Shown one piece after another: positions 30,067 through 50,795 of a DNA stretch of 64,000 nt. The notes beneath the pieces were generated by a model. It saw only the letters and a list, made by a program, of their open reading frames with translations, ran no database searches and was not told the DNA's origin. The DNA is taken from positions 2,176,001-2,240,000 of the forward strand of contig OZ220696.1 of assembly GCA_965116495.1 (NCBI GenBank). The letters run 5' to 3'. A program made the translations under genes and the position numbers. Position 1 is the first letter of the stretch. The number at the start of each line of letters is the position of its first letter. The DNA is from Gammaproteobacteria bacterium (GTDB taxonomy: Bacteria > Pseudomonadota > Gammaproteobacteria > Eutrophobiales > Eutrophobiaceae).

Positions 30067-31065
30067 TTACTGCTCTGACCAGGCATCGTCATCAGGACTG
30101 TAGATATAACACGGCTTAAACTTTCCCGCCTCCACGACGCAGATCTCCGTCAACCGCCTGACCCTCATGCTTTCCACGTAATCCATGTGCAAGAACAGGT
30201 CCAGGTTGTGCAGGTATTCGGCTTCAATAACCTTGAACGGCAGTGTTGAACGGCCCATGGTCAGGCTGACCAGGCGTTTGAGCGCCGATCCGGCATCGTT
30301 CGCGTGCAACGTCGTGTATACACCGCGATGTCCCGTATTCAACGCCTGGAAGAATACTTCTGCGGCATCCGGCTCCCTGATCTCCCCGACGATGATCCGG
30401 TCGGGCCGCTGGCGCAGGGACGTCGCCAGAAGTGTTGCCAGGGTCAGTGCCGGAGTATCCTCGGAATCATGCCGTTGCGCCTCCATGTGTATGACATTGG
30501 GGGCGTTCATCCTGATCTCCGCCACGTCTTCACAGACCACGATCCGCTCACGCTTCGGAATGGCAAAAGACAATGCATTCAGCAACGTGGTCTTGCCGCT
30601 GTTGGTGGCGCCCGATACCAGCAGGTTATCGCCGCGTTCCACGGCATCGAGCAACAAGTCCTTCATCGCCGTATTGATGGTATGGCTCTCCACCAGGTGT
30701 TCGAGGTCCAAACCGCGGCGCCGGTGCAGGCGAATCGACAGGGTGCAACCGCCAGGCGTGGCCGCCGGCAAGGTCGCACATAACCGGCTGCCGTCAGGCA
30801 GGCGCGCATTGATGACAGGCGTTGTCACCGGATCGAAGTATTGCGACAAGGCATTGGCAACCTGTTCAATCAGGGTAGCGACGGCAGCGTCATCACGGAA
30901 TAAAAACGCGGTTTTATACATGCCCTGATCCAGGTCGTCCGCCCAGATGTCGTCATAGCGGTTGACCATGACATTCGTCACCCGGTCGTTGTCCAGAAGG
31001 GGTTGGATGGGCGAGAGGTAGAACCTGACCAGTTCCCAATCAGCGCTGGTTAATGCGGTCAACAT
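30067..31065 (-). CDS. VirB11/CpaF/TadA family secretion ATPase
   Basis: ARLPDGSR, SGATNSGKTT, RQRPDRIIVGEIR, NTGH..TTLHAN. Confidence 0.92.
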   Translation of the reverse strand: MLTALTSADWELVRFYLSPIQPLLDNDRVTNVMVNRYDDIWADDLDQGMYKTAFLFRDDAAVATLIEQVANALSQYFDPVTTPVINARLPDGSRLCATLPAATPGGCTLSIRLHRRRGLDLEHLVESHTINTAMKDLLLDAVERGDNLLVSGATNSGKTTLLNALSFAIPKRERIVVCEDVAEIRMNAPNVIHMEAQRHDSEDTPALTLATLLATSLRQRPDRIIVGEIREPDAAEVFFQALNTGHRGVYTTLHANDAGSALKRLVSLTMGRSTLPFKVIEAEYLHNLDLFLHMDYVESMRVRRLTEICVVEAGKFKPCYIYSPDDDAWSEQ

Positions 31066-31242
31066 GATGATCCTTTATCCATATCCATACCTGTTTCCGT
31101 CAGTTCCCGCGTTAAGGTTTACGGGAACTTTTTCGTTATTGTAATCGATTCCGTCCATCCGTCATAGTGGACAGGGATTGTCCACTATCCAGCCACATAG
31201 ATGTGATTAGATGAGCCGCCCTCTGGGCGACATAGTATTTCA

Positions 31243-31269
31243 CTGGATTCCCGCATGCGCGGGAATGAC
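31243..31269. repeat. REP-like palindrome
   Basis: CTGGATTCCCGCATGCGCGGGAATGAC. Confidence 0.8.
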
Positions 31270-31353
31270 GAATGAGAATGTTTTCTGCTAGAATGCAAGA
31301 CTGATGGAAATAACTGGAGGAGACCGGCGTACGGAGTGCCGGCACACAGGAAT

Positions 31354-33048
31354 ATGGACGATTATCTACCCCGACTGGCAAGCTGGAGCGACCCCTGGTT
31401 CTGGCTGTGTTTTACCACCCTTCTTTATACGAATACCGTCATCGGCTTCTTCCCTCTCGCGTCGGACAGGGAGTTGACCGCGGCAGAGCACTTTTTAATG
31501 CACGCGCGGCGGCTCCTGCTGCTCATGTTCCTTGTTCTGTTCCCGGGCTTCCCATTGATCCTGTGGTTCCTGGCGACAAGCGTCACAGGCAGTGTCGCGG
31601 CCGCCAATAATATTGTGGATATAGTCATCATCAGCCGGGCCGGAAGGATGTGGGGGCTGGTAGCCGGCGGCCTGCTAGCCGGTCTGCTGACCCGGATCGT
31701 TTTCCTGCGCTACCTGTATCCGCGCTTCTCGTCCTGGTACATTTTCAGGCGGGTCTCGCAACGGGGCGACCAGGTATCCGATATACGGACCGAGGCCGAC
31801 CGCTACCGGGAAAAGAATTTTCGGCCCGGGAAATACTACAAGGCCGGGAAAATGTTTATCGGATTACGCCAGGATGACAAACCCCTGTACGTCGCAACGG
31901 AAGACTGGAAAAACTGGAACCAACGGATGGTAGGCGCTACCCAGACCGGCAAGGGTATCCTGTTCGGCGTGCAACTGGACCAGTCCGTACGTCAGGGGTT
32001 TTGTACGGTTTTCTTCGACGTGAAGCCGGACAGGCACGCACTGGGGATCATGAAAAAAGCCTGCAAAGAGACCGGCAGGCGGCTGGTCACCGTCGATTTC
32101 AACGGCGAACTCCCAGGGAAATGGTCGCCGTTCAGGACCGGCGCCGACCGAGAGATAAAGACCCGGCTGATGCAGGCCTATAACCTCGCAGAAAGAGGCG
32201 ACACGGCGGACTTCTACAAGATTGGTGAGCGGGAATTCCTTGAATCAGTTTTCGACAAGTGGAACAAGGAACTCATCGACCTGCCGAAACTGCTCAGGGA
32301 CTCGGCGAAACCACCACCCACCGTCACCAACCTGACCCGGGAGATGCTGGCTTTGTCCGCGCTGAAGCCGGGACGCAGCAAGGGGGTCGATATAGAACGT
32401 GTGCTGCGGGAAAACGCGGTACTCTACGTGCGTTCGTCTGCCACGGACCCGGTTGTCAAACGCGCCACCCAGGTATTCCTGTTATGCCTCCTGCAGGCCA
32501 CGACGCGCATGTATCGGCGCCGGGAACGATCCAGCCACCTGTTCATCGGCATAGACGAGGTGAAGTTCCTGGCTACCGATATCCTGGGGGACATGCTGGC
32601 GACCATCACGGGGTTCGATTGCCACCTCGCCATCGCCTACCAGAGCCTGGGCGACCTGAAATCCGTCAACAAACGACTGGTCAACGTGGAAGCCCTGGAG
32701 TTCAGCGTGGAGAACAACTGCAAAATGTCCCTGTACTACCAGCCCAACGACTTCGAGACAGCCGAATACGCCGCCCGGCAAAGCGGCACGAAACAGGCCA
32801 GCCGCTACCGCATGAACGTGGATATCAACAAAGCGGGCGGCGAGGTATACGCCGAGAGAAACCTGATCACCCAGGAAGAGGTGTACTACATCCACCCGAA
32901 TACCCTGATGATGCTGCCGTCCAGGGTGGCCATGGCAAAGATGCCGGGCAGACTGGCCGAGATCATCCACACAGCCTGGGTGGCCGTGGAGCCTGCTTAC
33001 CTGGACCCCCCTTGTCATTCCCGCGAAAGCGGGAACCCAGTCAATTAA
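31354..33048 (+). CDS. Type IV coupling protein-like ATPase (VirD4/TraD family)
   Basis: Three N-terminal TM segments, Walker A GATQTGKG, Walker B IGIDEV, AYQSLGDL, DFETAEYAARQSG. Confidence 0.82.
   Translation: MDDYLPRLASWSDPWFWLCFTTLLYTNTVIGFFPLASDRELTAAEHFLMHARRLLLLMFLVLFPGFPLILWFLATSVTGSVAAANNIVDIVIISRAGRMWGLVAGGLLAGLLTRIVFLRYLYPRFSSWYIFRRVSQRGDQVSDIRTEADRYREKNFRPGKYYKAGKMFIGLRQDDKPLYVATEDWKNWNQRMVGATQTGKGILFGVQLDQSVRQGFCTVFFDVKPDRHALGIMKKACKETGRRLVTVDFNGELPGKWSPFRTGADREIKTRLMQAYNLAERGDTADFYKIGEREFLESVFDKWNKELIDLPKLLRDSAKPPPTVTNLTREMLALSALKPGRSKGVDIERVLRENAVLYVRSSATDPVVKRATQVFLLCLLQATTRMYRRRERSSHLFIGIDEVKFLATDILGDMLATITGFDCHLAIAYQSLGDLKSVNKRLVNVEALEFSVENNCKMSLYYQPNDFETAEYAARQSGTKQASRYRMNVDINKAGGEVYAERNLITQEEVYYIHPNTLMMLPSRVAMAKMPGRLAEIIHTAWVAVEPAYLDPPCHSRESGNPVN
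33013..33041. repeat. REP-like palindrome translated as the C-terminus of the coupling protein
   Basis: TGTCATTCCCGCGAAAGCGGGAACCCAGT reads CHSRESGNP. Confidence 0.8.
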
Positions 33049-36349: not shown

Positions 36350-36407
36350 GTCATTCCGGTTTAAGTTTATCCCTGCGAAAGCAGGGACCGGAATCCACTA
36401 TTTGAAT
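36350..36407. repeat. REP-like element at the left edge of the defence island
   Basis: GTCATTCCGG...CCGGAATCCA with an inner CCCTGCGAAAGCAGGG hairpin. Confidence 0.65.
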
Positions 36408-36413
36408 CATGTT

Positions 36414-37619
36414 TTAGCCGACGCCGGCCATCGCTGAAGCCTTAATCTGCGTGACCGAAAGTCTATTAAGCGCATTGTCTATCAAGTTTACCGCATCATC
36501 AATATCTGCGTCTGTCGTGTCAAAGCCGAGACTGAATCGGATGGATGCTTCGGCATCTTCAGGGGATAGACCTATGGCTTTGAGAACGTGGGAAGGTTCC
36601 GGAATCCCGGATGTGCAGGCCGACCCGGTAGAAGCGGCAAGATGGGGCTGAAGCACCTGCAGAATATCCTGGGCGTAGAAACCTTCGAAGCAAATATTGG
36701 CATTGCCGGGGTGGCGGGATTCTTCGGTGGGGCCGTTCAATCGGATGGACCAGGGCAAGTCCGCCAATTTTTCGAGGAGGCGATCCCGTCTTTGACGCAG
36801 GAAGGTACGCTTTTGCCTCGACTCAGTACTACTCAGAAGTTCGGCAGCCGCACCCATGCCTACGCACAAAGCCGTAGGAACGGTGCCTGCGCGCAAACCG
36901 TTCTGTTGTCCACCCCCGTAGATAAGCGGTTCCAGGCGATCCTGCAACTCCCGGCGGATGTAGAGCGTGCCGATACCTTTCGGTCCGTACATCTTGTGGG
37001 CGGACAGACTCAACATGTCTACATGCTCGGCAACTCCCCGTATATCCATGGAAACGGGAGCCTGGGCGGCATCGCAATGAAATATGGCGCCTGCGTTTCT
37101 CACGAGTTCAGAAATTTCTTGGATGTCCTGTATTGTGCCAATTTCATTATTCACCGCCATGATGGAAACGGCGAGTACGTCTTCATCCAAGGCATCTTCC
37201 AGTGACGCCAACAGGACGCGGCCTTCCCTGTCGACGGTTAGATGCTCTACAGGAAGACCATGCTGGTCGGAAATTACCCGTCCGGCTGCAAGCACGCACT
37301 TGTGCTCAATCTCGCTGAGGATAAAACGTCTCCTTCTGCTTAATGAGCGAACGCGACGGGCAAGCCCAAGCAGGGCCATGTTGTTCGCTTCAGTGGCGCC
37401 TGACGTGAAAATGATCTCATCAGGGTCGGCGCCAATCAAAGCTGCGACTTGCGCTGCCGCCTGCTCCACGGCAAGAGAACTTTTCCAACCGAGTGTGTGG
37501 TCTGCTGAATGGGGGTTGCCGAAGGATTCCCTGAAATACGGCAGCATCCGGTCCAGGATCTGTTGATCGACGGGTGTGGTCGCCTGGTGATCCAGATAGA
37601 TGGTTTCTGAAATCCTCAT
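36414..37619 (-). CDS. sspA: Cysteine desulfurase (SspA/DndA/IscS-like)
   Basis: YLDHQATTP, FTSGATEANN, SAHKMYGPKG, STGSAC; divergent from the sspBCD-like genes with no isc/suf neighbours. Confidence 0.85.
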   Translation of the reverse strand: MRISETIYLDHQATTPVDQQILDRMLPYFRESFGNPHSADHTLGWKSSLAVEQAAAQVAALIGADPDEIIFTSGATEANNMALLGLARRVRSLSRRRRFILSEIEHKCVLAAGRVISDQHGLPVEHLTVDREGRVLLASLEDALDEDVLAVSIMAVNNEIGTIQDIQEISELVRNAGAIFHCDAAQAPVSMDIRGVAEHVDMLSLSAHKMYGPKGIGTLYIRRELQDRLEPLIYGGGQQNGLRAGTVPTALCVGMGAAAELLSSTESRQKRTFLRQRRDRLLEKLADLPWSIRLNGPTEESRHPGNANICFEGFYAQDILQVLQPHLAASTGSACTSGIPEPSHVLKAIGLSPEDAEASIRFSLGFDTTDADIDDAVNLIDNALNRLSVTQIKASAMAGVG

Positions 37620-37774
37620 TAATTTCAATCAGATATAAGAAAAAACCCCAAGCCGATAAAGTTTCTGACTTTGTTGCTGAAATATGCAAAAAAACGATAA
37701 CGTACGGATTGACTATAGCATACTCAATACATTAAAATCGAACTGGAGTTGTACTCCAGGAAGGAAATAGACTT

Positions 37775-38740
37775 ATGCCATATAAGCCACTGCTTGAAGC
37801 AAATTATCGCCCGTCATTCTCGGGACATGAGACCTTTCCCCTACGCTACGGATGGCTGAAAAAAGCATTCGACCGCGTTGCCGAAACTGAGCATTACTAT
37901 CATAATAAATCCCTGTGTTGGGCCGAAGACGCCATCGCACGCTTCGGTGTCGGAAAAAATATGGTTGCCTCCATACGCCATTGGGCAACAAGTTGTGATA
38001 TTATTGAAGAACCTGATAAGGAAGATTCAGTCAAAACGACAACACTTGGACAAAAGCTTTTTGGAAACAATGGGATAAAAGGGATTGACCCATATATGGA
38101 ACACCCCGCCACACTCTGGCTCATCCATTGGAAGTTGGCCGCCCAACCGAAGAAAACAACCTGGTTCTGGGCTTTCGGCCATTATCCGGCAGTTACCTTT
38201 TCCCGTAACCAATTCGTGCAAAAAATCGGGCGTCTTGCAAAGGATCGCGTGTGGCGTGTCTCAAATACGACTATCAAAAATGACGTTGCCTGTTTTATCC
38301 GGACTTATGCAGCACGGCAAGCAACGGGAAGAACCGGCCATGATGATGCACTGGAATCACCGCTGACGGAATTGGGATTGATCAAAACCGTAGGAGAAAA
38401 AGACGGATTTCGTTTTATGCGCGGCCCCAAAGCAACCCTCACTGACGGCGTGTTTGTATATGCCCTGCTGGATTTCTGGTCGCGCTACTCTGATGCCAAC
38501 ACATTGTCATTTGAAGCTCTTACTTACGAACCAGGCGGACCGGGGCGCGTGTTTGCCCTGGAAGAGAATGATGTAGTCGATCGCTTGACGGCGCTCGAAG
38601 ATATAACGAGTGGGAAGTTGCGATGGTCTGAGGCCGCCGGTTTGAAACAGGTGGTCCGCAATATTGATATCGACGAAGAAACAAAACTCCAATACCTGTT
38701 TTCCGATTATGACAGTTCAACCGTAGAGGGAACAAATTAG
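37775..38740 (+). CDS. sspB: DUF4007 protein (SspB-like nickase)
   Basis: FSGHETFPLRYGWLKK, GVGKNMVASIRHW, DPYME..LWLIHWKL, LESPLTELGLI. Confidence 0.88.
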   Translation: MPYKPLLEANYRPSFSGHETFPLRYGWLKKAFDRVAETEHYYHNKSLCWAEDAIARFGVGKNMVASIRHWATSCDIIEEPDKEDSVKTTTLGQKLFGNNGIKGIDPYMEHPATLWLIHWKLAAQPKKTTWFWAFGHYPAVTFSRNQFVQKIGRLAKDRVWRVSNTTIKNDVACFIRTYAARQATGRTGHDDALESPLTELGLIKTVGEKDGFRFMRGPKATLTDGVFVYALLDFWSRYSDANTLSFEALTYEPGGPGRVFALEENDVVDRLTALEDITSGKLRWSEAAGLKQVVRNIDIDEETKLQYLFSDYDSSTVEGTN

Positions 38741-38742
38741 TA

Positions 38743-41700
38743 ATGCTGAAAGAACACGTCCATATTGCCAGGCGTTTTTTGAGATCAATACGCATCGATA
38801 CTGATCTTACTGAAAGCTCGGCATTGGAAGGTTTTATTTGCCCGCAGTCATCCAGAGATGTCCTGATGACCATGGCACGCCACGTAACCGAAACCGGACA
38901 AGGCGCATTCACCTGGACCGGTCCGTACGGAAGTGGGAAGTCCAGCTTGGTCGTTGCACTGAGCGCATTGTTAAGCGGCAGTGCTTCTCTACGCGCGCAA
39001 GCGGGAAAGATATTCGGATGGGAATTGACGGATACCATCGCGGAAGCGATGCCCTCGGGAACTGAAGGATGGCGCATCGTGCCTGTGGTCGGTGTTCGGG
39101 ATGATCCTGTCAGGGTAATTGGAGAAGCCGCTCGACGGGAACTAGTCGTAAAACGCCGTCCTCGCGGCGGGTGGAGAGAAAGCAACCTGATAAAAGCGCT
39201 GACAGATGCCGCTGAATACAAGCCTGACAGGTACGGCGGGGTTGTCTTGTTCATTGACGAGATGGGCAAATTCCTGGAAAGCGCTGTCAGGGACGGTTCC
39301 GATATCTACGTCTTCCAGCAACTTGCGGAAGCGGCGTCACGGAGCAAGGGGCGCTTGCTGGTAATCGGTATACTGCACCAGTCATTCGAGGAGTATACCC
39401 ACCGGCTTTCCCATGAAATAAGGGACGAATGGGCCAAGGTACAAGGACGGTTCATAGACTTGGTGATCAATGCGACGGGCGAAGAGCAGATAGAACTGAT
39501 TTCCCGCGCAATCGAAAGTGATCGTCAACCCAAGATTATGGATGACCTTAGCTCCAATGTCGCTCAGGTTACGCTGCAAAATAACAAGATCGACATTGAT
39601 CGACTCGCCTCGAGGCTGACAGCATGCTGGCCCCTGCACCCGGTTGTCACCTGCCTGCTCGGCCCCATCTCGCGCCGTCGGTTCGGACAAAACCAGCGCA
39701 GCCTGTTCGGCTTTTTGAACTCGGCAGAGTTATTCGGGTTTCAGGATTTCCTGAAACACGCCGATGATGAGAAGTTATATACACCGGACATGCTCTGGGA
39801 TTACCTGCGCGCCAACCTGGAGCCATCCATATTGGCATCACCGGACGGCCATCGCTGGGCGTTGGCCGCCGAGGCGCTTGAACGGTGTGAATCTCAGGAC
39901 GGCAACGAACTACACATCAGTCTTTTGAAAACCATTGCCGTCATAGACCTGTTCAAGGAACGTTCAGGGATTATCGCAAACTTCAACGTACTGCAAACCT
40001 GTTTCCATGAAATACCCGACCAGGAACTCCCGGGCGCCTTGTTGAAGCTGAATAACTGGTCATTCACCATTTACAAAAAGTACCTTGAGACACATGCTAT
40101 TTTTGCCGGTAGCGATTTCGATATCGATCAAGCCACGCGGTCGGCGCTTGAACAGATACATGAGATAGATTTCAAGGAACTTAAATCACTAGCAGGCATT
40201 CAGCCCATTCTAGCCAAGCGGCACTATCACGAGACCGGGACGTTGCGATGGTTTGAGGTAAACATCATACCGCTCAGTGCTCTCCGTGATACTGTCGAGC
40301 ATTACCAGCCTGAGAAGGGGGCCATAGGCCAATTTATTCTTGCCGTACCCACCGCGGGTGAGAGCGAAGAAGAAGCAACAAAACTGTGTCGAGAAGCAGC
40401 CGACCATGATGCCCCCTGGGACAGTCTGGTCGGCATGTCGAAGGCATCATGGACGATTATTCCATTAGCCCGTGAACTGCTTGCATTGGAATGGGTAAGT
40501 GACGAACATCCTGAATTGGCGGGTGATTCTGTTGCTAGGCGGGAAGTTTCCGCACGCCTAGCAGCCCTGCAATCACTGCTTGAAACAGAATTGCACAAAT
40601 CCTTTGATAATGCCAAATGGTTTGGCAAATCACACACCGCCCAGCCCCTGAGGCAGGCTGAACTGAACAACATCGCATCAGAACTTGCAGACAGTCGTTT
40701 CAACCAATGTCCACACTTGCATAATGAACTGTTGAACCGGCAGAAACCGTCCGGCAGCGCCGTGGCAGCCCAAAATATATTGCTGCGACGCATGGTTCTG
40801 AACAAAGGGGAGGACAGGCTGGGCATCCGGAAATTCCCGGCAGAAGCCGGCCTGTTTGTTTCAATACTGGATGCGTCCGGGCTTTATCGGAAACGCAATG
40901 ATCAATGGCGATTCTTGCCTCCCGATAAACACTCGGACTCCTGTTGTCTTATCCCGATGTGGGAAGCTGCGAGCACGCTGGTACATGAAAAAACTATCAC
41001 CGTCACGGATTTGTATGATCTCTGGCGCAAACCACCCTTCGGTGTGAAAGACGGACTACTACCGGTTCTTTCCGTCGCATTCATTCTGTCACAACAGGAG
41101 AAACTGGCAGTCTACCGGGAAGGATTATTCAAAGCCCGATTTGACGACGTTGACGTTGACTACCTGGCAAAGGATCCGAACACCATCCAGGTCCGGTGGA
41201 TGGATTTATCCGACATAGCCCGCAGGTTATTGTCGGAAATGGCGGCAATAGTCCGGGACCTGGACGAAACCAACCGGCTCAGTCAACTTGAACCCATCGA
41301 CGTCGCCCGCGGATTGGTAGCGATATATGACCAATTACCACAATGGACTAAACGGACCATGCGGCTGTCAGCCAACGCGATCCACATCAGGGACATGTTC
41401 AAGCGCGCGCGCGATCCGAACAAGTTCCTGTTTGATGATATACCGGAAACACTGGGAGGAGATATTTCCCAAATCGACGAGGAAGCCCTGCACCGATTAG
41501 TAGAAAAAGTACGCGATGGTCTGACTGAACTGGCAAACGCCTATCCCTCAATGTTGCATAGGTTGCGAGAAACCCTGCTCTCCGAATTGGGTGTGCATAA
41601 TATCTCCCCGCAATCACTGAATGAACTGCGTGACCGCGCTGAAAACATCCGTCAGGTCGAAGGCGATTTCAAACTCGAAGCTTTCATCGGCAGGATTGCA

Positions 41701-42126
41701 CAATTCAATGATACCGGTGCAAGCATCGAAGATATAGCCAGCCTGGCGGCGAACAAACCACCCCGTCACTGGATTGATCCCGATCGCGACCGGACGACCG
41801 TCGAGATTGCTGAACTTTCGCAAAAATTTCTGCGGGCTGAATTATATGCTCGGGTTAAAGACCGACCTGACAAACGCCATGCCATGGCAGTAGTCGTCGG
41901 GATGGATGGCCGACCGACACCAGTTCATGAAGAATTTGCTATTGCTGACATGGATCGAAATCAGGTAGATCTATTAATCAAGCAAGTAAAAGACGCATTG
42001 GAGCACAGCGGAGAAAGACGCCGCAATATCATCCTGGCCGCCCTGGCAGAATTAAGCGCCTTGTATCTCAAACAGGCTGCATCCGATCATACGGATACAG
42101 AACAAAAGGAACAGACGGCGTCATGA
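38743..42126 (+). CDS. sspC: Large P-loop ATPase (SspC-like)
   Basis: 1127 aa; TGPYGSGKS, IDEMGKFLE, EWAKVQGRF, FGQNQRSLFGFL, PPFGVKDG. Confidence 0.85.
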   Translation: MLKEHVHIARRFLRSIRIDTDLTESSALEGFICPQSSRDVLMTMARHVTETGQGAFTWTGPYGSGKSSLVVALSALLSGSASLRAQAGKIFGWELTDTIAEAMPSGTEGWRIVPVVGVRDDPVRVIGEAARRELVVKRRPRGGWRESNLIKALTDAAEYKPDRYGGVVLFIDEMGKFLESAVRDGSDIYVFQQLAEAASRSKGRLLVIGILHQSFEEYTHRLSHEIRDEWAKVQGRFIDLVINATGEEQIELISRAIESDRQPKIMDDLSSNVAQVTLQNNKIDIDRLASRLTACWPLHPVVTCLLGPISRRRFGQNQRSLFGFLNSAELFGFQDFLKHADDEKLYTPDMLWDYLRANLEPSILASPDGHRWALAAEALERCESQDGNELHISLLKTIAVIDLFKERSGIIANFNVLQTCFHEIPDQELPGALLKLNNWSFTIYKKYLETHAIFAGSDFDIDQATRSALEQIHEIDFKELKSLAGIQPILAKRHYHETGTLRWFEVNIIPLSALRDTVEHYQPEKGAIGQFILAVPTAGESEEEATKLCREAADHDAPWDSLVGMSKASWTIIPLARELLALEWVSDEHPELAGDSVARREVSARLAALQSLLETELHKSFDNAKWFGKSHTAQPLRQAELNNIASELADSRFNQCPHLHNELLNRQKPSGSAVAAQNILLRRMVLNKGEDRLGIRKFPAEAGLFVSILDASGLYRKRNDQWRFLPPDKHSDSCCLIPMWEAASTLVHEKTITVTDLYDLWRKPPFGVKDGLLPVLSVAFILSQQEKLAVYREGLFKARFDDVDVDYLAKDPNTIQVRWMDLSDIARRLLSEMAAIVRDLDETNRLSQLEPIDVARGLVAIYDQLPQWTKRTMRLSANAIHIRDMFKRARDPNKFLFDDIPETLGGDISQIDEEALHRLVEKVRDGLTELANAYPSMLHRLRETLLSELGVHNISPQSLNELRDRAENIRQVEGDFKLEAFIGRIAQFNDTGASIEDIASLAANKPPRHWIDPDRDRTTVEIAELSQKFLRAELYARVKDRPDKRHAMAVVVGMDGRPTPVHEEFAIADMDRNQVDLLIKQVKDALEHSGERRRNIILAALAELSALYLKQAASDHTDTEQKEQTAS

Positions 42127-42965
42127 ATACTGAAGCCAGTAAGCGGCATGTGCTGGGTCTGTCCGGCGGGCGAGACAGCGCGGCCTTGGCCGTATATATG
42201 CGGCAACACCACCCGGAATTGAATATCGAATACTTTTTTACAGACACTGGCAAAGAACTACCGGAAGTCTACGAATATCTTGGTCGTCTTGAAGGTTTCC
42301 TGGGCCAGCCGATATTACGGCTGAATCCAGACCGCGATTTCGACTTCTGGCTCAAGCAGTACAACGATTTCCTACCTTCGCCCCAAAGCCGCTGGTGTAC
42401 CAGGCAACTGAAACTTCGGCCATTCGAACAATGGCTGCGTCCCAAGCTCGAAAATGGGGAAACCATCTACAGCTATGTCGCAATCCGTTCTGACGAAGAG
42501 TACCGCGAGGGCTATGCTTCCAAAAACGACAGGCTCATAGTGCGACTGCCTTTTAAGGAAGTTGGCGTCGACAAGGCCGGAGTGCTCGAGATACTTGACG
42601 GCGCCGGCCTGGGCCTGCCGACATACTACGAATGGCGAACCCGTAGTGGTTGTACCTTCTGTTTCTTCCAGCAGAAAATCGAATGGGTCCGGTTGAAAGA
42701 ACATCATCCTGACGCATTCGAGGAAGCCAAGGCTTATGAAAAGAACTCAGTGGGCCACGGATCTCCTTTCACCTGGAGTCAAGGCGAAGCCCTTGATGAA
42801 TTGGAAAAGCCGGAACGGATCAGTCAAATCAGGCAGGAGCATGAACAGCGTCTGTTACGTATGCGTTGTAAGGTCCAGCCTAATCCGTTACGGCCTGATA
42901 ATGATCCGCTGGATATTGATGATTTATACGGTCGGGCGAAGGTTTGTTTGGCTTGTCATAAATAG
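42123..42965 (+). CDS. sspD: PAPS-reductase family protein (SspD-like)
   Basis: PP-loop SGGRDS, RWCT, SGCTFCFFQ, terminal CLACHK; ATGA overlap with sspC. Confidence 0.88.
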   Translation: MNTEASKRHVLGLSGGRDSAALAVYMRQHHPELNIEYFFTDTGKELPEVYEYLGRLEGFLGQPILRLNPDRDFDFWLKQYNDFLPSPQSRWCTRQLKLRPFEQWLRPKLENGETIYSYVAIRSDEEYREGYASKNDRLIVRLPFKEVGVDKAGVLEILDGAGLGLPTYYEWRTRSGCTFCFFQQKIEWVRLKEHHPDAFEEAKAYEKNSVGHGSPFTWSQGEALDELEKPERISQIRQEHEQRLLRMRCKVQPNPLRPDNDPLDIDDLYGRAKVCLACHK

Positions 42966-42982
42966 AAACTGGAGAAAGATAC

Positions 42983-43507
42983 TTGAATTTCGATTTACTG
43001 GTAGACTTTGTAAATGAAGCAACCGAAGAAATAGCAAAGTATCAGGTTGAGTTCACCTTGTCTTCCCCGAATATGAGAGTAAACCAATATGTAGTTCCTT
43101 TCCTTAAGTGGGATTCAATAAGTTACGGTGATGCTGAGATATGTAAAGTCCCAAATGACAAACGAGGAATATATGCTTTTGCCATCTGTCAACTGAGTGA
43201 CGTGCTACCGCCTCATGGATACATTCTATATGTTGGAATTGCAGGCCGCGACTCTAAGCGCTCATTGAGAGAACGCTACAAAGACTATCTTAATGAAAAA
43301 AAAGTCATCAAATCATCTCCTAGAATTGCGCGAATGATCGGCACTTGGCATGATGTGTTGCGATTTTTTTTTGCTCCTGTAAGTGATGACGTTTCAGCAG
43401 ATGATCTGAAAAAACTAGAAAAAGAATTGAATTCAGTTCTAATACCACCGTTTTCTGAGAACGACTTAGAGGCAGACATTAAACGCAAACGGAGGGCGTT
43501 TCGATGA
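42983..43507 (+). CDS. GIY-YIG nuclease-like protein
   Basis: RGIYAF..ILYVGIA..SLRERYKDY..LEKEL..PPF. Confidence 0.7.
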   Translation: MNFDLLVDFVNEATEEIAKYQVEFTLSSPNMRVNQYVVPFLKWDSISYGDAEICKVPNDKRGIYAFAICQLSDVLPPHGYILYVGIAGRDSKRSLRERYKDYLNEKKVIKSSPRIARMIGTWHDVLRFFFAPVSDDVSADDLKKLEKELNSVLIPPFSENDLEADIKRKRRAFR

Positions 43508-44763
43508 AAAAATTGAGAAAGATTGTTCTACCTGCAATTCGCGGAATTATGGGTGACTGGGTATATTATTCATGCCTTATGGACTTGAAAGAGTTAAGCT
43601 CAAGAGTTCACTACGCAGAGGAGATTCATAAAAATCAGGCACTCTCAGATATGATTCAAAGAAGGCTAAAGGCCGGACGAAGTGCACAAATTGCTGAATA
43701 TCTCAAGATTCAGCCGGAACGTTTCTTTAATTCTCTCGTCGTTGCAACTTATGGCGGACAGCCTAACTGGCACGCTCTATCTAATGTTAGTGGCAAAACA
43801 GTTAACAATGAATTACGCGATATACGAGATGCAACTATCGCATCAGTCGGATTCTTAACTCTAAGAGGGGATGAAAAACTTTTTGCATTAGACGGACAAC
43901 ACCGGCTTGCTGGTATAAAAAAAGCTATTAGAGATGAAATGGAGCAAGATCCGTTTGATGAAGTATCAGTAATTTTTGTTGCCCACAAAGATACCTCCAA
44001 AGGCTTAGAGAGAACTAGAAGATTATTCACGACCCTCAATAAGACTGCGCGGCCGGTGTCTAAAGGCGATATTATTGCTTTAGATGAAGATGATGTAATG
44101 GCTCTTTGTGCTAGGCGACTTATTGAAGAAACTGATTTCTTTTTCGGGAATCGCATAGCATTCGTAGCAAATAATAACTTACCTGGGGCAAATATCACTA
44201 GCCTCACAACAATCGGAAATTTATATGACATTTTGACTATTTTGTTCACCAATGGGCAATCAGACTTGAAAAAAAGGAAAAGTGATCTACAAAGAGTACG
44301 ACCAAACGATGATATTCTTGAGCAGTACTATAAATATTCTGAGGGGTTTGTATCGCTACTTGGTGAAAATTTCGAAGAGTTATATGAATTTTTCGCTGCC
44401 AAAGATACTACCGCTATTGTAAAAAAATACCGGGGAAATTTTGGAGGCCGCGCAACTTTCCGTCCAATTGGTCTAGATGTATTTACAAGAGTAATAGCTC
44501 AACTCTCAAAAGAGATGACACTCGCCGAAGCTATTAAACTTGTTGCAAAATTGCCTCGAAATCTTTCTGATGCGCCTTACGAAGGATTGATGTGGGATTC
44601 AAACCAAAAGATAATTCTCAACGGGCATAAAGTAACTTTGCGCGAGGTGCTTTTATTCATGCTGGGAAGGAACACCAAAAAATATTCAGAACCGATACTG
44701 TTAGATAGATATAGGCGAGAAACTGATAACAACAAAATAAACCTACCCGAAAAACTAATTTAG
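43504..44763 (+). CDS. DGQHR-domain (DndB-like / ParB-fold) protein
   Basis: PAIRGIMG, IQR, FFNSLVV, ALDGQHRLAG, RRLFTTLNK. Confidence 0.88.
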   Translation: MKKLRKIVLPAIRGIMGDWVYYSCLMDLKELSSRVHYAEEIHKNQALSDMIQRRLKAGRSAQIAEYLKIQPERFFNSLVVATYGGQPNWHALSNVSGKTVNNELRDIRDATIASVGFLTLRGDEKLFALDGQHRLAGIKKAIRDEMEQDPFDEVSVIFVAHKDTSKGLERTRRLFTTLNKTARPVSKGDIIALDEDDVMALCARRLIEETDFFFGNRIAFVANNNLPGANITSLTTIGNLYDILTILFTNGQSDLKKRKSDLQRVRPNDDILEQYYKYSEGFVSLLGENFEELYEFFAAKDTTAIVKKYRGNFGGRATFRPIGLDVFTRVIAQLSKEMTLAEAIKLVAKLPRNLSDAPYEGLMWDSNQKIILNGHKVTLREVLLFMLGRNTKKYSEPILLDRYRRETDNNKINLPEKLI

Positions 44764-44770
44764 CAATAGC

Positions 44771-44943
44771 TGCGTAATCCGGCTGATCGTGAACACTCAT
44801 TCTGGTTGAACGTGAACACCGATTCCGGTTCATCGTGAACACCTGTTCCGGTTGAACGTGAACACTTTTCCGGTCATTTCCGGAATCACTGTTCACGTTC
44901 CCGGAATCACCGTTCACAATCAACCGGAATCATTCTCAACGCA
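44771..44943. mobile_element. IS21-like non-autonomous remnant (fused ends, no transposase)
   Basis: Starts TGCGT, ends ACGCA; CGTGAACAC repeated at 44788, 44811, 44834, 44857 (23-bp period), then inverted GTTCAC copies at 44891 and 44912. Confidence 0.7.
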
Positions 44944-45015
44944 TTGAACTTGTAACCCTTGGTAGGCTCTCTCCTTTTTGGAGGAACTTGTCCTTGAAAA
45001 TCTTTTCGCTAGTAA

Positions 45016-45450
45016 TTATGTAACTAGTTTTTCCAATTCATCAAACAAAGACCACAGCGGTCGCTCATCTGGATCAGACATTATTTGAATCAAGTAAGGC
45101 ATCCCAGCATTTGCGACACCTAGGCAATAATCAAAAATTTCCCTGTAATCAGACAAAGACTCTATATCCTCAGTTGTACCTAAGTATGCGAGTAGCATAT
45201 GGTTAATTCTGTATGGGTCAGTAGAGAAAATTGTTGCAGGAGTTGCGTTGTACGTGTCAGCGTCTGGCTCTGGGTCTAAGCCTTTCGAAAGACCTATTAA
45301 AAAAGCCATATACCAGAAATCTACTTGTCTTTTAAATGGGGCATACTCTGGTGTACTCTTATTTCCTCCTGTGCGGCTATAACTAACAACTGACTCTCTA
45401 TATTTGTTAGGTATTTCCACGTTGTATGATGCGAAAGGATTAGCAATCAT
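45016..45450 (-). CDS. Small hypothetical protein (PbeD-like position)
   Basis: 144 aa, AGGAG RBS, last gene of the operon; PFKRQVDFWYMAFLIG..ANAG pattern reminiscent of small ATPase partners in DNA-sulfur loci. Confidence 0.6.
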   Translation of the reverse strand: MIANPFASYNVEIPNKYRESVVSYSRTGGNKSTPEYAPFKRQVDFWYMAFLIGLSKGLDPEPDADTYNATPATIFSTDPYRINHMLLAYLGTTEDIESLSDYREIFDYCLGVANAGMPYLIQIMSDPDERPLWSLFDELEKLVT

Positions 45451-45462
45451 ATCTAAACTCCT

Positions 45463-47604
45463 TTAAGAAACAGATTCGTTATTTACTCTTTCGCATGTAT
45501 GGCAACGTGATCTATGGTCACAACTGCATCTAATAATGCGAGCATCATTTACTTCCGCCTGGTGTACTAACATTCTCGGGTAGTGTGCAGGATTGGTTAT
45601 CGTATAAACCTTACCAGCCTTTGTATCAATAATGCTTTCAACACCCGCTATCTCGTCGTGCGTCAGGAAGAGAACAACTTGACTACCTTCCATAATGGTT
45701 CGTCGAAGAACAGATCTCTTTACGAAACCAGACATCATCCCTAGAGGGGTATCAATAACATTAGGTGCTTCGACTTGACTTACCTTTGTTAATGCCAAAA
45801 TAAATGCAAGAGTGATGGCCCTACGTGATGCTCCATTCAAATCTTGATCGGGATTGAGTTGGTGACCATTTGGCCCGTACACCAAGATATCGTAGTCTTC
45901 GGTCAACTCAGCTTTTGTAATCAATGTGAGGTCGTTGACCTCGGGCTCAGCACCGATCATCTCTAAAAATATGCGATTCATTTCATCACTTACCTTCTTT
46001 AGCTCTTCTTTCACCAAATGTTCCTCTATTTGGTGGAATATATTTTGAACATTACGTGATAGATTGAGCTTGTCCACAGACGAATCAGTTTTAGTAAGTT
46101 TCTTTTCGATTTTCTTCCTATTATCTTCGGCGTCCCGTTTGCGTTGTTTAGATTCTTCAATCGAACTCTCACGTTGGCCAAGTCGTATTCTCGCCGAATC
46201 CAATTTACGAGATAACGAATATTCCAGTTCTCGGTATTCGTTTAGTGAAGTATCATCTATAGCGTCGCGATCAGCGATGAGCTTCTTCAGTCTTTTTTGG
46301 TCAGCAGAAAGGTCCGACATGAACTCATAAAAATCCTTATTCCGCGAAGCATAATATTGAACCCACCCATCTGAACGCGACTTATCAAATTGTTCGCTTC
46401 TCACTGCGTAGAATAGGCTTGTCGCTGCCTCCTGTAACGCGTCGGAGGCTCGACTGTCCTCTATAGATTCTTGAATTGAGTCCCTTGCTTTCATCCCAAT
46501 TTTTGTTTCTGTAGATAAATCTGCACCACAAAAACACTTGTCACGGCTAAGAAGCTCTTCAAGTATAGGGATATTTACTTTTGGGAGTCGCTTCTTCTTA
46601 CTCATGCCATTTAGAAGTGCTAGACCTTTTTTTGCTGACTTAGATATAAGTACGGCTGATAAATGATCGGAATTAAGCAGGGTAGATATATCTTCTAAGG
46701 CTTTCTTTGAGCCTTGAGTACCACGTTCGATATCTTTTCTACACTTGTTTATGTCCGCTACCAATTTGGATTTGTCACCAAGCTTTAAAGCCTCTTCAAT
46801 CTTTTTTCGTGTGGAATTCAGTGTGCTACTGCCCTCACTGATCTCACTCTCGAGCGTTTTTCTTTCCTTTTCCCACTCAGTAATATCTTCCTCAAATCCT
46901 ACGATGCGATCATTAAATTTTTCAAGCTCTTTTGCATAATCAGTGTCATCAATCCTTGAGCCAAATTTGCTAGCGGCTTTATCGAGGTGGTTAATCGTCT
47001 TATCTAAAATATCGAGTCCTAATAATGCCTCAATGGCATCGCTCACACGCTTTCTTTTTACACCCCGAGTTGCTGCTGCTTCGATGAACGACATGGCGCT
47101 ATCACCGTCAGTAAAATACACATCCTTCAAGGCACCGGGAATACTGCTCTCGATAATTTCTTCCACATCGGAAGCCAATATACGTTCAGACCCCTCGGGC
47201 TTAATTTCAAAGAGTATTACTCCCTCTGCCTCACGGCGTATGTCCCCCGAATCACTAGGATACTCAATACACGTCCTAAGTAATCTGTATTGTTTTTTTT
47301 GGAGCTCATGAGCACTGCGCCCGAGAGTTACTACTTGGTCTGTCTCGAACTCTATCTCTACTGACACCTCAACTTTCTGGATAGTCTCCTTCATATCTGA
47401 AGGGAAAAGGGGGTATTGTTTACCAATACCAGGCAATGCTCTGTTTCCAAAAAGACCCCATAGCAAAGCAGTTTTGCATGTGGTTTTACCAGATTCGTTT
47501 GCAGCTCGTATTACAGTAAGATTTTTCTTTTCGTCACATGAAAAATCCAGTGTGAGGTCTTTCAATAAACGAAAATTATTAATACTTGCTCTTATCAACT
47601 TCAT
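45463..47604 (-). CDS. SMC/Rad50-like ABC ATPase (PbeC/DndD-like)
   Basis: Walker A AANESGKTT, YFTDGD, coiled coils with a CFCG hook, signature LNGASRR, Walker B VIDTPLG, LTHDE. Confidence 0.88.
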   Translation of the reverse strand: MKLIRASINNFRLLKDLTLDFSCDEKKNLTVIRAANESGKTTCKTALLWGLFGNRALPGIGKQYPLFPSDMKETIQKVEVSVEIEFETDQVVTLGRSAHELQKKQYRLLRTCIEYPSDSGDIRREAEGVILFEIKPEGSERILASDVEEIIESSIPGALKDVYFTDGDSAMSFIEAAATRGVKRKRVSDAIEALLGLDILDKTINHLDKAASKFGSRIDDTDYAKELEKFNDRIVGFEEDITEWEKERKTLESEISEGSSTLNSTRKKIEEALKLGDKSKLVADINKCRKDIERGTQGSKKALEDISTLLNSDHLSAVLISKSAKKGLALLNGMSKKKRLPKVNIPILEELLSRDKCFCGADLSTETKIGMKARDSIQESIEDSRASDALQEAATSLFYAVRSEQFDKSRSDGWVQYYASRNKDFYEFMSDLSADQKRLKKLIADRDAIDDTSLNEYRELEYSLSRKLDSARIRLGQRESSIEESKQRKRDAEDNRKKIEKKLTKTDSSVDKLNLSRNVQNIFHQIEEHLVKEELKKVSDEMNRIFLEMIGAEPEVNDLTLITKAELTEDYDILVYGPNGHQLNPDQDLNGASRRAITLAFILALTKVSQVEAPNVIDTPLGMMSGFVKRSVLRRTIMEGSQVVLFLTHDEIAGVESIIDTKAGKVYTITNPAHYPRMLVHQAEVNDARIIRCSCDHRSRCHTCERVNNESVS

Positions 47605-47825
47605 TATCGATCTCCTAATTCCTTTATCCGATCTGCTACGAACGAAACTTCATCCATGATGCTCTCGATCATTCGTGATCTAGGGACAGATTCGGAACTA
47701 GCCTCCAACATGTATATTTTGTTGCAAAGCAATTTAATTTTCTCCTTCTGCCCATCAGTCCAGGAATCTGTCGAGTCCACTTCCCGAGAAATCATCTCTG
47801 ATATCTTTTTGTATCCAATACTCAT
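47604..47825 (-). CDS. Small helical protein (PbeB-like position)
   Basis: 73 aa, start/stop overlap with both neighbours. Confidence 0.65.
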   Translation of the reverse strand: MSIGYKKISEMISREVDSTDSWTDGQKEKIKLLCNKIYMLEASSESVPRSRMIESIMDEVSFVADRIKELGDR

Positions 47826-49939
47826 TTATCTCTCTCCAGCATAGATAACATTTCATTCATTAATTCAATGGAACCATCACTCTCAAGCCCGTTTGAACTG
47901 AGTTTAGAGAAGAAACTCATGCGCTCAAATTCGTTACGCAGAAGACTTTTAAGATCCCTATCCATCCTCCATGAATCCAACTTGGGTATTACAACAAAGT
48001 CATGTACAACAGCCTTTTCTTTTTGAGTACTGGGTGACAACCGTAGTACTCTGCCCAATCTCTGAACCCATTGACGCTTTACTGTATTACTTGCAAGAAA
48101 ATATGCAGTTTCTGTCTGAGGTATATTAAATCCTTCATCTAAGACACGCTTTGAGGTAAGAACTTGGTACTCTCCAGCTTCAAATGACTGAACTATTCGT
48201 TTTAGAGTCTTGGGACTACTTGTTTCGTCTGCGGTCACCTGATGAAAGTTTACTGCACGTTTAGATAAAAGTTGATTTAGTGCTTCTAACTGCTCAGGAT
48301 TTTTGTCTGTGCAAAAGAATAGTGTTCTTTGAATCTCGTATTTTTTCTTAGGTAAAATTTCAACTAGCCTAGAAATCTTTCCTGAAGCTGCCTCAACGAT
48401 TCTTCTTCTCTGTAAACAGAGCAGTTTCCAACGCTCTTTCTCGGAATTCCCATCATCCAACTCAGCTGCGTAGCTCAATTTACGAATCTTATCTGTTAAG
48501 TCAGACCATTGCTCTTGCTCTTCATAATCAAGTTGAACTTTGTGAACGTGGTAATCATATGGGACAAGGCAGCTTCCAATCGCTTTCTCTAGAGGAAAGT
48601 CATAAACCACGTCTCCAAAGTAATTTATCAAAAACTCAGTTCCACATTCATCAAACTGTCGAACATGAGTTGCTGATAGACCCATTAAATATTTAAAGCA
48701 ATCCCTAGCCTCAGCCTGAAAACCAATGCTTCCTAGGTTGTGAACTTCGTCCCCAATTAACATTATCGGCATAATCATACTGGCTTCTTCCAGAATTACA
48801 GTCAAATCAGACTTGAGTGCCTCATGGGTTAGCACAACAACCTCATTATGAGAGACCTCATGCCTTAGTTTTCTGATTTGTCCCTTAAGCACTCTCTTGA
48901 CTTCTCTTTTGGAAACTCCATAGGTATTTTGTGGAATAACAGAAAATGACCTCACATCATCGGACCACTGATTAAGCAAAGCTTTTGTAGGTACAGCAAT
49001 TACAATGAGTAATTTTTCTTCTCTTGAGCTAACTTTGCTCGCTGCAACTAAAGCGGTAAGTGTTTTACCTCCACCTGTAGCTATCGAGAGAATACCCTTT
49101 CCTTTTTTCATCCACGCATTTATCGCTTCGCCCTGATGTGCATACTCTCCAGTTTGATAATTTAACCATTTCGGGATAATCAACTTGGACTTTATATCTC
49201 CTACTTCACTAGAGCCTAATTCTTCAAGAATCTTGGCATTCAAATAAGATGGCCAGTCGCATACACCGCGTTTCTTCTCATTAATCTCAGAAAGGTATTC
49301 AATTGTTTTTTTATTGACTTCAATAGTCTCTACACCCTCGTATCTACCACTCCAGAGCAACTCGAAAGTCTCTCGAATTATATCGACACCTTGCTCACCT
49401 GCAGTGTTATCAAATTCTTTACTTATACCTATCTGTTCAGTATTTAGTGAAAACCCTTTGCCAGTTGCATTAACTGAACCGTGAATCGCTATTCCGCCGA
49501 ACTCAGTTTCAAAAATCCAACATTTTGCATGAAAAAGCCCTTGTTTCTGCAAACCTAGTTTTAGACTAAGTCGACCCGTTGCAACTAAATAAGCCAATGC
49601 GCTAACAGCTCTTGTTCGGAGATTGTCTTCTGTGAGCTCAAATCCAGGGAAAAGCAAAGAGATTATATTTTCGTTATTGACAATAGCAATTTTTAGCGCT
49701 TTTAAATCTTGCTCTTCTAAGTTTGGACCTACAATAAACCTTATTGAGCTGCCTTTAGCTGCTAAAAAGTGGCTTAATGAGCGGGCTAATTCGCTTAAAG
49801 CTCCACTAGTAAAATATCCACTCATACAAGATATTTTTGAAGCAATTTCAACGATAGGTAGAAATACTTCACGATCGATATCATGCTTGTTAACAAAGTA
49901 AACCGGCTTTAGTTCGGCGATTGTGTTTGAGGTAGTCAA
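47822..49939 (-). CDS. PLD(HKD)-nuclease plus SF2 helicase fusion (PbeA-like)
   Basis: GYFTS, HAK..GSVN, ATGGGKT, DEVH, GLSAT, LDEGFNIP, QRLGRVLR. Confidence 0.88.
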   Translation of the reverse strand: MTTSNTIAELKPVYFVNKHDIDREVFLPIVEIASKISCMSGYFTSGALSELARSLSHFLAAKGSSIRFIVGPNLEEQDLKALKIAIVNNENIISLLFPGFELTEDNLRTRAVSALAYLVATGRLSLKLGLQKQGLFHAKCWIFETEFGGIAIHGSVNATGKGFSLNTEQIGISKEFDNTAGEQGVDIIRETFELLWSGRYEGVETIEVNKKTIEYLSEINEKKRGVCDWPSYLNAKILEELGSSEVGDIKSKLIIPKWLNYQTGEYAHQGEAINAWMKKGKGILSIATGGGKTLTALVAASKVSSREEKLLIVIAVPTKALLNQWSDDVRSFSVIPQNTYGVSKREVKRVLKGQIRKLRHEVSHNEVVVLTHEALKSDLTVILEEASMIMPIMLIGDEVHNLGSIGFQAEARDCFKYLMGLSATHVRQFDECGTEFLINYFGDVVYDFPLEKAIGSCLVPYDYHVHKVQLDYEEQEQWSDLTDKIRKLSYAAELDDGNSEKERWKLLCLQRRRIVEAASGKISRLVEILPKKKYEIQRTLFFCTDKNPEQLEALNQLLSKRAVNFHQVTADETSSPKTLKRIVQSFEAGEYQVLTSKRVLDEGFNIPQTETAYFLASNTVKRQWVQRLGRVLRLSPSTQKEKAVVHDFVVIPKLDSWRMDRDLKSLLRNEFERMSFFSKLSSNGLESDGSIELMNEMLSMLERDK

Positions 49940-50329
49940 GAAAACCTTACAGTTATATCTGTGATGCGTAGGTTTTTATTCTTTAGCCCTACAGTTTTTT
50001 TGGAGTTTCCTCGATGAACTGCGCCAGAATTATGGAACATTATGTTATTGGAGAACTACCATAACATTATTTTAGCTCTGCAAATTTTCTGATACTAAAT
50101 CGTATATCTTTTTTACATCATATTCTGAAACAAATCTATAACAATGAAGACTTCAGAAATACCTAGCAAACGTTTTTTATAGTAAGAAATCAATCAAATT
50201 GGTGTCCATCTCCGAATTTCATCTCTGAATTTAGCATGCAGACGCAGCTATACTCCTTTCCGCATCCTAGCCAGCCGCAACAGCTAGCGTTTCATGGGGT
50301 TATCAACCCAGGAAGGGGGGATTAGAGGC

Positions 50330-50795
50330 TCAGATCTTTAAATTCAAAACCCCCTCAAAAACCCCAAACGCCACCTCCCCATACAAACAGAAAACCACTC
50401 TCACCAGCCCGGTTTCTCCCTGCAGGTAATCTATCGTAGCGGATAGCATGATCTCCGCGCAGCGCTCGATCGGAAAACCGAACACGCCGGTGCTGATAGC
50501 TGGGAACCCGACGCTTTTCAGACCGTTTTTGTCTGCGACTCTCAGGCTGTTCAGCTTTGCTTTCCTGAGTTTTTCCTCCTCGTCCCCTTCTCCCTTGCGC
50601 GGGCCGACGGCATGGATGATGCGCCGCGCCTTGAGGTTGCCGCCGCCGGTGACCACCTTTGGCGCGAATGGCGCCGGCCACGCCCGCGCCTAATATGAGC
50701 GAGGCATTGGCCGCATTGACGATAACGTCGGTGTGGAGTTCGGTGATGTCGCCCTCGACGAGTTCCAGGGTTTTATCGTTGATTTGAATGTGCAA
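50330..50795 (-). pseudogene. Macro domain (ADP-ribose hydrolase, YmdB-like), frameshifted with internal deletion
   Basis: [20 protein letters not shown] in one frame; [26 protein letters not shown] in another. Confidence 0.85.

Follow-up and report, generated by a model that had tools for sequence, protein, structure and literature searches.

Among the closest described systems to the locus reported here is DndCDEA-PbeABCD of the haloarchaeon Haloterrigena jeotgali A29 (Xiong 2019, PMC6459918), a CxC ABC-ATPase system in the terms of Rakesh 2024 (PMC10853773). According to the former report, Pbe requires the phosphorothioate (PT) mark and not the writer proteins, each of the four pbe genes plays a part (that of pbeA being partial), virus bearing PT marks evades the block, and cleavage was not observed; the case for cleavage or suicide is made in Rakesh 2024. 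The single-strand-type writer SspABCD has been described with SspE (PMC13251355) and with SspFGH, the latter being a precedent for one Ssp writer serving more than one effector, additively (Wang 2021, PMC8092258). In the accounts of BREX type 4 (PMC12914056, PMC12839542), homologous PAPS-reductase, BrxC/SspC and DUF4007 genes appear together with a desulfurase. Here we analysed positions 36414..49939 of a window of 64,000 nucleotides (the whole stretch of DNA under study; Gammaproteobacteria bacterium, assembly GCA_965116495.1, contig OZ220696.1, positions 2,176,001 to 2,240,000), where an intact SspABCD set lies beside an intact, Ssp-associated PbeABCD set. We lean towards the reading that the Pbe module uses the PT marks of the Ssp set to block unmarked phage DNA.

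The locus shares with DndCDEA-PbeABCD the A-B-C-D gene order, an HKD nuclease joined to an SF2 helicase, a small protein in the B position, a CxC-hook ATPase, a D protein with a predicted DndE fold and an adjoining PT writer; unlike in that system, the writer is Ssp and not Dnd, with no dndCDE adjacent and no DndC in the genome. With SspABCD-SspE it has in common the writer genes and their order, sspA being divergent, whereas the slot next to the writer holds GIY-YIG and DGQHR genes and pbeABCD, and SspE is missing from the genome. An earlier note on this DNA had listed ten genes, and all ten open reading frames (ORFs) are present and intact at the coordinates and with the strands and sizes it gave, sspABCD and the cargo genes facing the pbeABCD operon:

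36414..37628, minus strand: sspA, cysteine desulfurase, 404 aa (PADLOC SspA 443 bits, DndA 433; PF00266), divergent from sspB
37775..38740, plus strand: sspB, DUF4007 triple-HTH protein, 321 aa (PADLOC SspB 364 bits; PF13182 294 bits)
38743..42126, plus strand: sspC, BrxC/ORC-type AAA+ ATPase, 1127 aa (PADLOC SspC 1349 bits; Walker A and B seen in the translation)
42123..42965, plus strand: sspD, predicted PP-loop/PAPS-reductase-like sulfur-inserting subunit, 280 aa (PADLOC SspD 447 bits, against 22 for DndC)
42983..43507, plus strand: predicted GIY-YIG-like nuclease, variable cargo, 174 aa, 40% GC (motif residues, Atlas, weak fold match)
43504..44763, plus strand: DGQHR (DndB/ParB-fold) protein, variable cargo, 419 aa, 39% GC (TIGR03187, PF14072)
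44772..44990, no strand: internally repeated element between the converging operons (inverted internal matches)
45016..45450, minus strand: pbeD, DndE-like double ribbon-helix-helix protein by predicted structure, 144 aa
45463..47604, minus strand: pbeC, CxC-hook ABC ATPase with a C-terminal four-cysteine tail, 713 aa (PADLOC PbeC 176 bits, above DndD at 114)
47604..47825, minus strand: pbeB, small protein assigned by position and size, 73 aa
47822..49939, minus strand: pbeA, single-HKD nuclease domain fused to an SF2 DEVH helicase, 705 aa (PADLOC PbeA 588 bits; PF13091, PF04851, PF00271)

Each of the four writer proteins scores highest with its Ssp model in PADLOC and sspBCD form one run, in agreement with the SspABCD assignment of the earlier note. 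The set is predicted to write single-strand PT marks, and both the PT chemistry and the motif of the mark are presumed here; in strains studied elsewhere the mark sits at a short motif, CpsCA. We searched the host genome (G000; one contig, 99.5% complete) for other writers and for known effectors. DndC and DndH gave no match genome-wide and tblastn matched neither DndC nor DndD; a separate desulfurase homologue elsewhere is 24% identical to the sspA product. Full-length SspE (DUF262-DUF1524) is absent from the genome, where the only match was an N-terminal one of 46 bits, as against 385-755 bits in four SspE-carrying genomes. Three DUF262 genes elsewhere are of the GmrSD, HEC-06 and Orf5 types and were rejected as SspE, so that neither sspE nor dndC was found to serve the modules from another site. 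As to SspABCD-SspFGH, PADLOC found no SspF, SspG or SspH in the locus, tblastn with one distant SspFGH trio was blank (the SspG model was not run), SspF had no match in the genome in a search in which no positive control matched, and the sole SspH-model match, rejected as SspH, is the cellular FtsK. PglZ and BrxL, both said to be missing in the earlier note, had no match among 14 locus proteins (PADLOC, Pfam, NCBIfam); the PglZ search was confined to the locus, while BrxL was blank by tblastn across the genome as well. Since no PglZ or BrxL lies in the locus, whose effector is of Pbe type, we rejected a BREX-4 reading. By these searches, Ssp is the sole PT writer in the genome, and no known Ssp effector was found there.

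The facing operon fits the PbeABCD-like effector that had been proposed for it. PbeA keeps the helicase motifs and the HxK of the HKD signature, the latter retained in 124/125 homologues; the HKD aspartate position is Glu in this PbeA. The PbeC hook cysteines C357 and C359 are invariant, with the hook present in 146/146 aligned homologues. The four-cysteine tail is found in 145/146 of these and in 123/125 full-length representatives among the best 150 library matches, and is missing from the three canonical PbeCs compared. The protein had been called an SMC-like ATPase; ATPase stands, whereas "SMC-like" is better replaced by CxC-hook ABC ATPase, the class of Rakesh 2024 (PMC10853773) to which PbeC belongs. 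Because it scores far lower with the PADLOC PbeC model than canonical copies do (623-1011 bits), this lineage probably lies outside the sets used for the PADLOC models. For PbeD, a structure model with a predicted local distance difference test score (pLDDT) of 92.6 found DndE 7x4e as the best of 48,161 chains (Z 8.8, root-mean-square deviation 3.4, 111 aligned), followed by DndE 5wtu (Z 7.6) and by other ribbon-helix-helix proteins. Foldseek also ranked DndE first (E 2.3), and a PbeD profile returned nothing significant from PDB sequences; the modelled protein is thus predicted to have the DndE fold. PbeB was identified by place and size alone, as 73 aa between A and C (66 aa in H. jeotgali), and its homologues occupy the same position in close relatives. 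No relatives were found in viral contigs.

The linkage between the two modules recurs. A PbeC profile retrieved 189 relatives from GTDB genomes and 335 from metagenomes, of which the best 80 of each gave 160 loci, and we counted as linked those with at least two of sspB, sspC and sspD within 10 kb of PbeC. This held for 66/80 GTDB loci (58 with all three genes) and, among the 58 GTDB loci that were fully flanked, for 53 (46 with all three); in the metagenome set, made up mostly of short loci, it held for 42/80. The background frequency of sspD is 7/400 class genomes. The Ssp-Pbe pairing is not chance. The linkage extends over about ten phyla, and the record titles of the PbeC relatives name Gamma-, Alpha- and Betaproteobacteria, Acidobacteriota, Poribacteria, Latescibacterota, Verrucomicrobiota, Planctomycetota, Rhodothermales, Binatia, Thermodesulfobacteriota, Nitrospirales and Bacillota. 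The relative arrangement varies: 69 GTDB loci with any ssp gene comprise 35 convergent, 24 ssp-then-pbe, 7 pbe-then-ssp and 3 divergent cases. On plasmid CP099618, sspA-B-C-D-pbeA-B-C-D form a single run of overlapping or abutting ORFs, and in 15 convergent loci the sspD and pbeD stops are 0-282 bp apart, so that no further gene fits between the modules. Eight-gene loci are also carried by Methylobacterium sp. 174MFSha1.1, Thiothrix fructosivorans, Microbulbifer flavimaris and Ectothiorhodospira magna. dndC occurs in 0/160 PbeC loci, whose flanks also yielded no SspG/H-like gene. Of 52 linked GTDB genomes with no sspE nearby, 50 were searched genome-wide (genome completeness is not given), with SspE in 0/50, the positive control matching, and DndC anywhere in 9/50. 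A crude regular-expression search of the 66 linked loci found a C5-methylase motif in none and an amino-methylase motif in one. In a PbeC tree the Ssp-linked clade has 0.99 support, which is weak evidence with three canonical PbeCs and with loci lacking SspC left out.

Several observations weigh against a functional coupling. Five of the 58 GTDB loci with both full flanks carry at most one ssp gene. The loci are kin, and many perhaps come from similar communities; the counts are therefore non-independent and no P value is claimed, and the search patterns themselves defined the PbeC clade. Within the locus, ssp genes have 48-55% GC and the cargo and pbe genes 39-42%, and a PT-binding pocket was identified in none of the Pbe proteins. 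Distance matrices give Mantel r of 0.82-0.91 within modules against 0.35-0.43 between them, indicating partial co-descent. The slot accepts unrelated cassettes, as a defence hotspot would, among them a TIGR04096 putative methyltransferase in 10/66 linked GTDB loci and SspE in 14/66, where the writer could be retained for SspE. Looked at from the Ssp side, this or a second Pbe lineage is present in 4/19 sampled sspD loci (6 from a class sample and 13 from an order sample, the present locus included), so that most Ssp loci have no Pbe, and Pbe is in 0/6 other class-sample sspD loci.

Such observations bear on whether Pbe and Ssp merely travel together, Pbe being a stand-alone or back-up (abortive) defence that is triggered by a phage factor and acts as a guard instead of a reader. 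The modest agreement between the module trees, the free swapping in the genus of the slot downstream of sspD and the Ssp-less members of the lineage (L025, L064, L075) argue for such independence, as does the account in PMC10853773 of CxC systems without Dnd in many bacteria, with a proposed suicide mode and PbeB as a brake. Against it stand a linkage of about 90% in one lineage that survives four rearrangements and is even fused into one gene run, the lack of dndC and of SspG/H-like genes in the same flanks, and the partitioning of canonical Pbe with Dnd in the same genus. Since this linkage persists through four orders without those other genes, it exceeds what island clustering predicts, and we regard independence as unlikely. 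One of the Ssp-less members, L064:8232-9680, is a Chloroflexota locus in which PbeA is short (483 aa).

Some loci raise a different question, namely whether PbeC-PbeD, as sisters of DndD-DndE, might help SspD/SspA install PT, in a new motif or on both strands, in which case Pbe would belong to target selection besides any role as a reader. In L043:6769-9748 and L074:4653-9744, pbeA has sspD upstream of it, and neither sspB nor sspC lies within 10 kb. In L016:491-9783, L096, L101 and L102, this Pbe lineage is directly downstream of a BrxL gene; L016 additionally has a distant SspC-like ATPase and a desulfurase, and the group suggests a pairing of Pbe with a BREX-4-like writer. L043, L074 and L016 would suit a hybrid writer, as would the predicted DndE fold of PbeD and the matches of PbeC to DndD models. 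On the other hand, SspABCD is complete here and is kept without Pbe in most congeners, and haloarchaeal dndCDEA is reported to make PT by itself (PMC6459918). We consider a hybrid writer improbable.

The earlier note had counted the GIY-YIG and DGQHR genes as part of the architecture, and as a fixed part they did not hold. The 174-aa protein is a putative GIY-YIG nuclease: Y64, Y83, G85, R98 and E146 are invariant in seven aligned rows, its first Atlas match (0.98) is a cluster named putative GIY-YIG, and Foldseek ranks 1 and 2 are GIY-YIG structures, including 2lwf (R.Eco29kI), a weak match with E of 7e-3 and 0.15 and a model pLDDT of 63. The 419-aa protein scores 107 bits with TIGR03187 DGQHR (cut-off 59) and 57 bits with the DndB equivalog TIGR03233 (cut-off 328), and was rejected as a DndB equivalog; a DGQHR profile gave nothing significant among PDB sequences. 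GIY-YIG homologues occur in 9/160 PbeC loci. Both are missing from the closest relatives, L030 having an empty slot and L004 other cargo, and DNA identity with these two ends at 42965 and resumes at 45013. Since the pair is confined to those nine loci and absent from the nearest relatives, we rejected it as core; it is optional, exchangeable cargo. Across the 66 linked GTDB loci, the slot or flanks contain, besides the SspE and TIGR04096 genes mentioned above, a MORC-histidine-kinase pair (9), DUF262 with a kinase (10), DUF262 with SIR2 (2) or none of the recurring families (14). After pbeD, a MORC-histidine-kinase (790 aa) with an unannotated 633-aa protein is seen in 18/160 loci (e.g., L136:12712-16976, L056, L031), and DUF262 with a Ser/Thr kinase in 14/160.

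It could be proposed that this cargo, and not Pbe, reads the mark, as a split SspE analogue with a ParB-fold NTPase sensor and a nuclease, Pbe being a passenger. The pair comes after sspD on its strand, the DGQHR gene overlaps the GIY-YIG stop and comes next in 9/9 cases, and the slot commonly holds other ParB-fold cargo (SspE, DUF262 with kinase or SIR2); in SspE itself, a DGQQR domain of ParB fold is described as coupled with a nuclease (PMC13251355). Nevertheless, most linked loci do without the pair, L142 carries it together with an SspE-cluster gene, and DndB-family proteins are described as regulators (PMC6459918). This explanation seems to us to have only a slight chance of being correct.

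The sampled sspD loci place our preferred reading, Pbe as effector, in a wider setting. The 19 loci hold this Pbe lineage (2), a second Pbe lineage (2), a helicase-MORC-PLD trio (6), SspE (2), SspFGH-like genes (1), methyltransferase-HNH (2), DGQHR (1) or no assigned cassette (3). In the genus, sspD is present in 11/23 genomes and this Pbe lineage in 2/23, while canonical Pbe occupies a separate site, directly after dndCD in 3/4 other PbeA copies fetched and near a dndD fragment in the fourth. The second lineage (L182:10526-15558 in G458; L185:4559-9582 in G457), with PbeA 28% and PbeC about 21% identical and no cysteine tail, occupies the slot next to an SspD that is 91% identical, and no dndC was found in G458. 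The trio (SF2 helicase of about 545 aa, MORC/HATPase of about 620 aa, PLD of about 305 aa) comes directly after sspD, in the same orientation, and is spread over at least three families (L183:13227-17642, L187, L188, L196:8208-12624, L167:5043-9634, L168:9595-14257); it has no good match to any PADLOC system and is a candidate for a further Ssp effector. The picture is of a resident Ssp writer with swappable effectors, Pbe being one cassette among several: one Pbe lineage is almost always beside Ssp, and the second was recruited separately. The writer/effector swap of the earlier note thus stands in that an Ssp writer with a Pbe-type effector recurs, but not as an exclusive partnership. Likewise, the absence of sspE is true of this locus and of the 50 genomes mentioned, and fails as a general rule; because SspE and Pbe coexist in 14/66 linked loci, unlike here, Pbe is not a strict SspE replacement, and we rejected the notion that it always replaces SspE.

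Comparison with L004 shows purifying selection on sspC, sspD and all four pbe genes, the ratios of non-synonymous to synonymous substitution rates being 0.03-0.12 (sspC 0.11, sspD 0.035, pbeB 0.03). Contigs from two public runs, which may be the source sample, match 37461-42368, 42662-44817 and 44931-50615 with zero differences, which argues against mis-assembly. A promoter and terminator scan of 44700-45100 stayed at chance level. The element at 44772-44990, which we take to resemble an IS21-family end, has similar copies at 1362160-1362273 of the host genome and in L004, where the slot also holds transposase-like genes.

Contigs of a related organism join 36357 to 50352 with unidentified sequence between, and in the congener G455 a glyoxalase-like gene stands without sspA within 1.5 kb; together they suggest an empty site. 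As the contig is only about 89% identical, and so from a relative, we rejected the joint as marking the island ends, at which no direct repeat was found. Next to the locus, a macro-domain gene (window 50333-50795, minus strand; Pfam and NCBIfam scans) is split over two frames near 50650; congeners have an intact copy (172-187 aa) at the border of the same slot. Further away, a minus-strand gene (window 30067-31065), presumably a secretion-type ATPase, and a plus-strand ORF (31336-33048) that we assume to be coupling-protein-like make a remnant of a conjugative element at 30067-33048 possible.

Assuming that the modules are coupled, SspA would mobilise sulfur from cysteine, SspB and SspC would choose and prepare one strand, and SspD would insert the sulfur into DNA, all as established for homologues. 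PbeC, a zinc-hook ABC ATPase, and PbeD, a DndE-fold DNA binder, may scan DNA as a Rad50/DndDE-like unit and license PbeA against unmarked DNA; PbeA would translocate along such DNA and stall or nick it, and the small PbeB may serve as an adaptor or a brake. If the module behaves like haloarchaeal Pbe, it would depend on host PT, and phage with PT marks would escape. A swap of writer is plausible because that Pbe needs the mark and not the writer proteins (PMC6459918). The GIY-YIG and DGQHR genes would be an optional second cassette in the exchangeable slot, perhaps a split SspE-like sensor-nuclease. More tentatively, and with slightly less than even confidence, we propose that the four-cysteine-tailed Pbe is a dedicated third effector of single-strand PT (SspABCD-PbeABCD), that Ssp has gained Pbe on two or more occasions and Pbe reads the backbone sulfur whatever the writer, and that the sspD slot is an exchangeable reader port, used also by the split SspE-like GIY-YIG/DGQHR pair and by the helicase-MORC-PLD trio.

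Both modules are published, and the pairing itself was not found in print. The literature searched holds no description of it, although subscription reviews and some supplements beyond reach could contain one, and the word Pbe is absent from the main text of PMC8092258, PMC12914056 and PMC12839542. We infer, with a fair degree of confidence, that the Ssp-Pbe coupling is functional and probably constitutes a phage-defence system that has not yet been described. Current tools may under-call it, because PbeC scores weakly and none of the PADLOC, Pfam and NCBIfam models matches PbeB, PbeD or the 174-aa GIY-YIG protein.

If true, a recurrent Ssp-Pbe system would explain part of the 83.9% of sspBCD clusters reported without a known effector partner (Wang 2021, PMC8092258). 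Table S2 of that work, with its 2,211 orphan sspBCD, assigns neither effector to Ectothiorhodospira magna B7-7 or to Methylobacterium sp. 174MFSha1.1, and pbeABCD is adjacent in both (L022 and L058). An Ssp-Pbe system would possibly also explain part of the 165/553 pbeAC reported to have no known writer (PMC6459918). Moreover, the poorly understood mechanism of Pbe, so far studied in one haloarchaeon, would be brought into cultured bacteria and Escherichia coli, a setting that would allow asking whether Pbe cleaves DNA and by what means a Rad50-like complex recognises a mark carried by a single strand.

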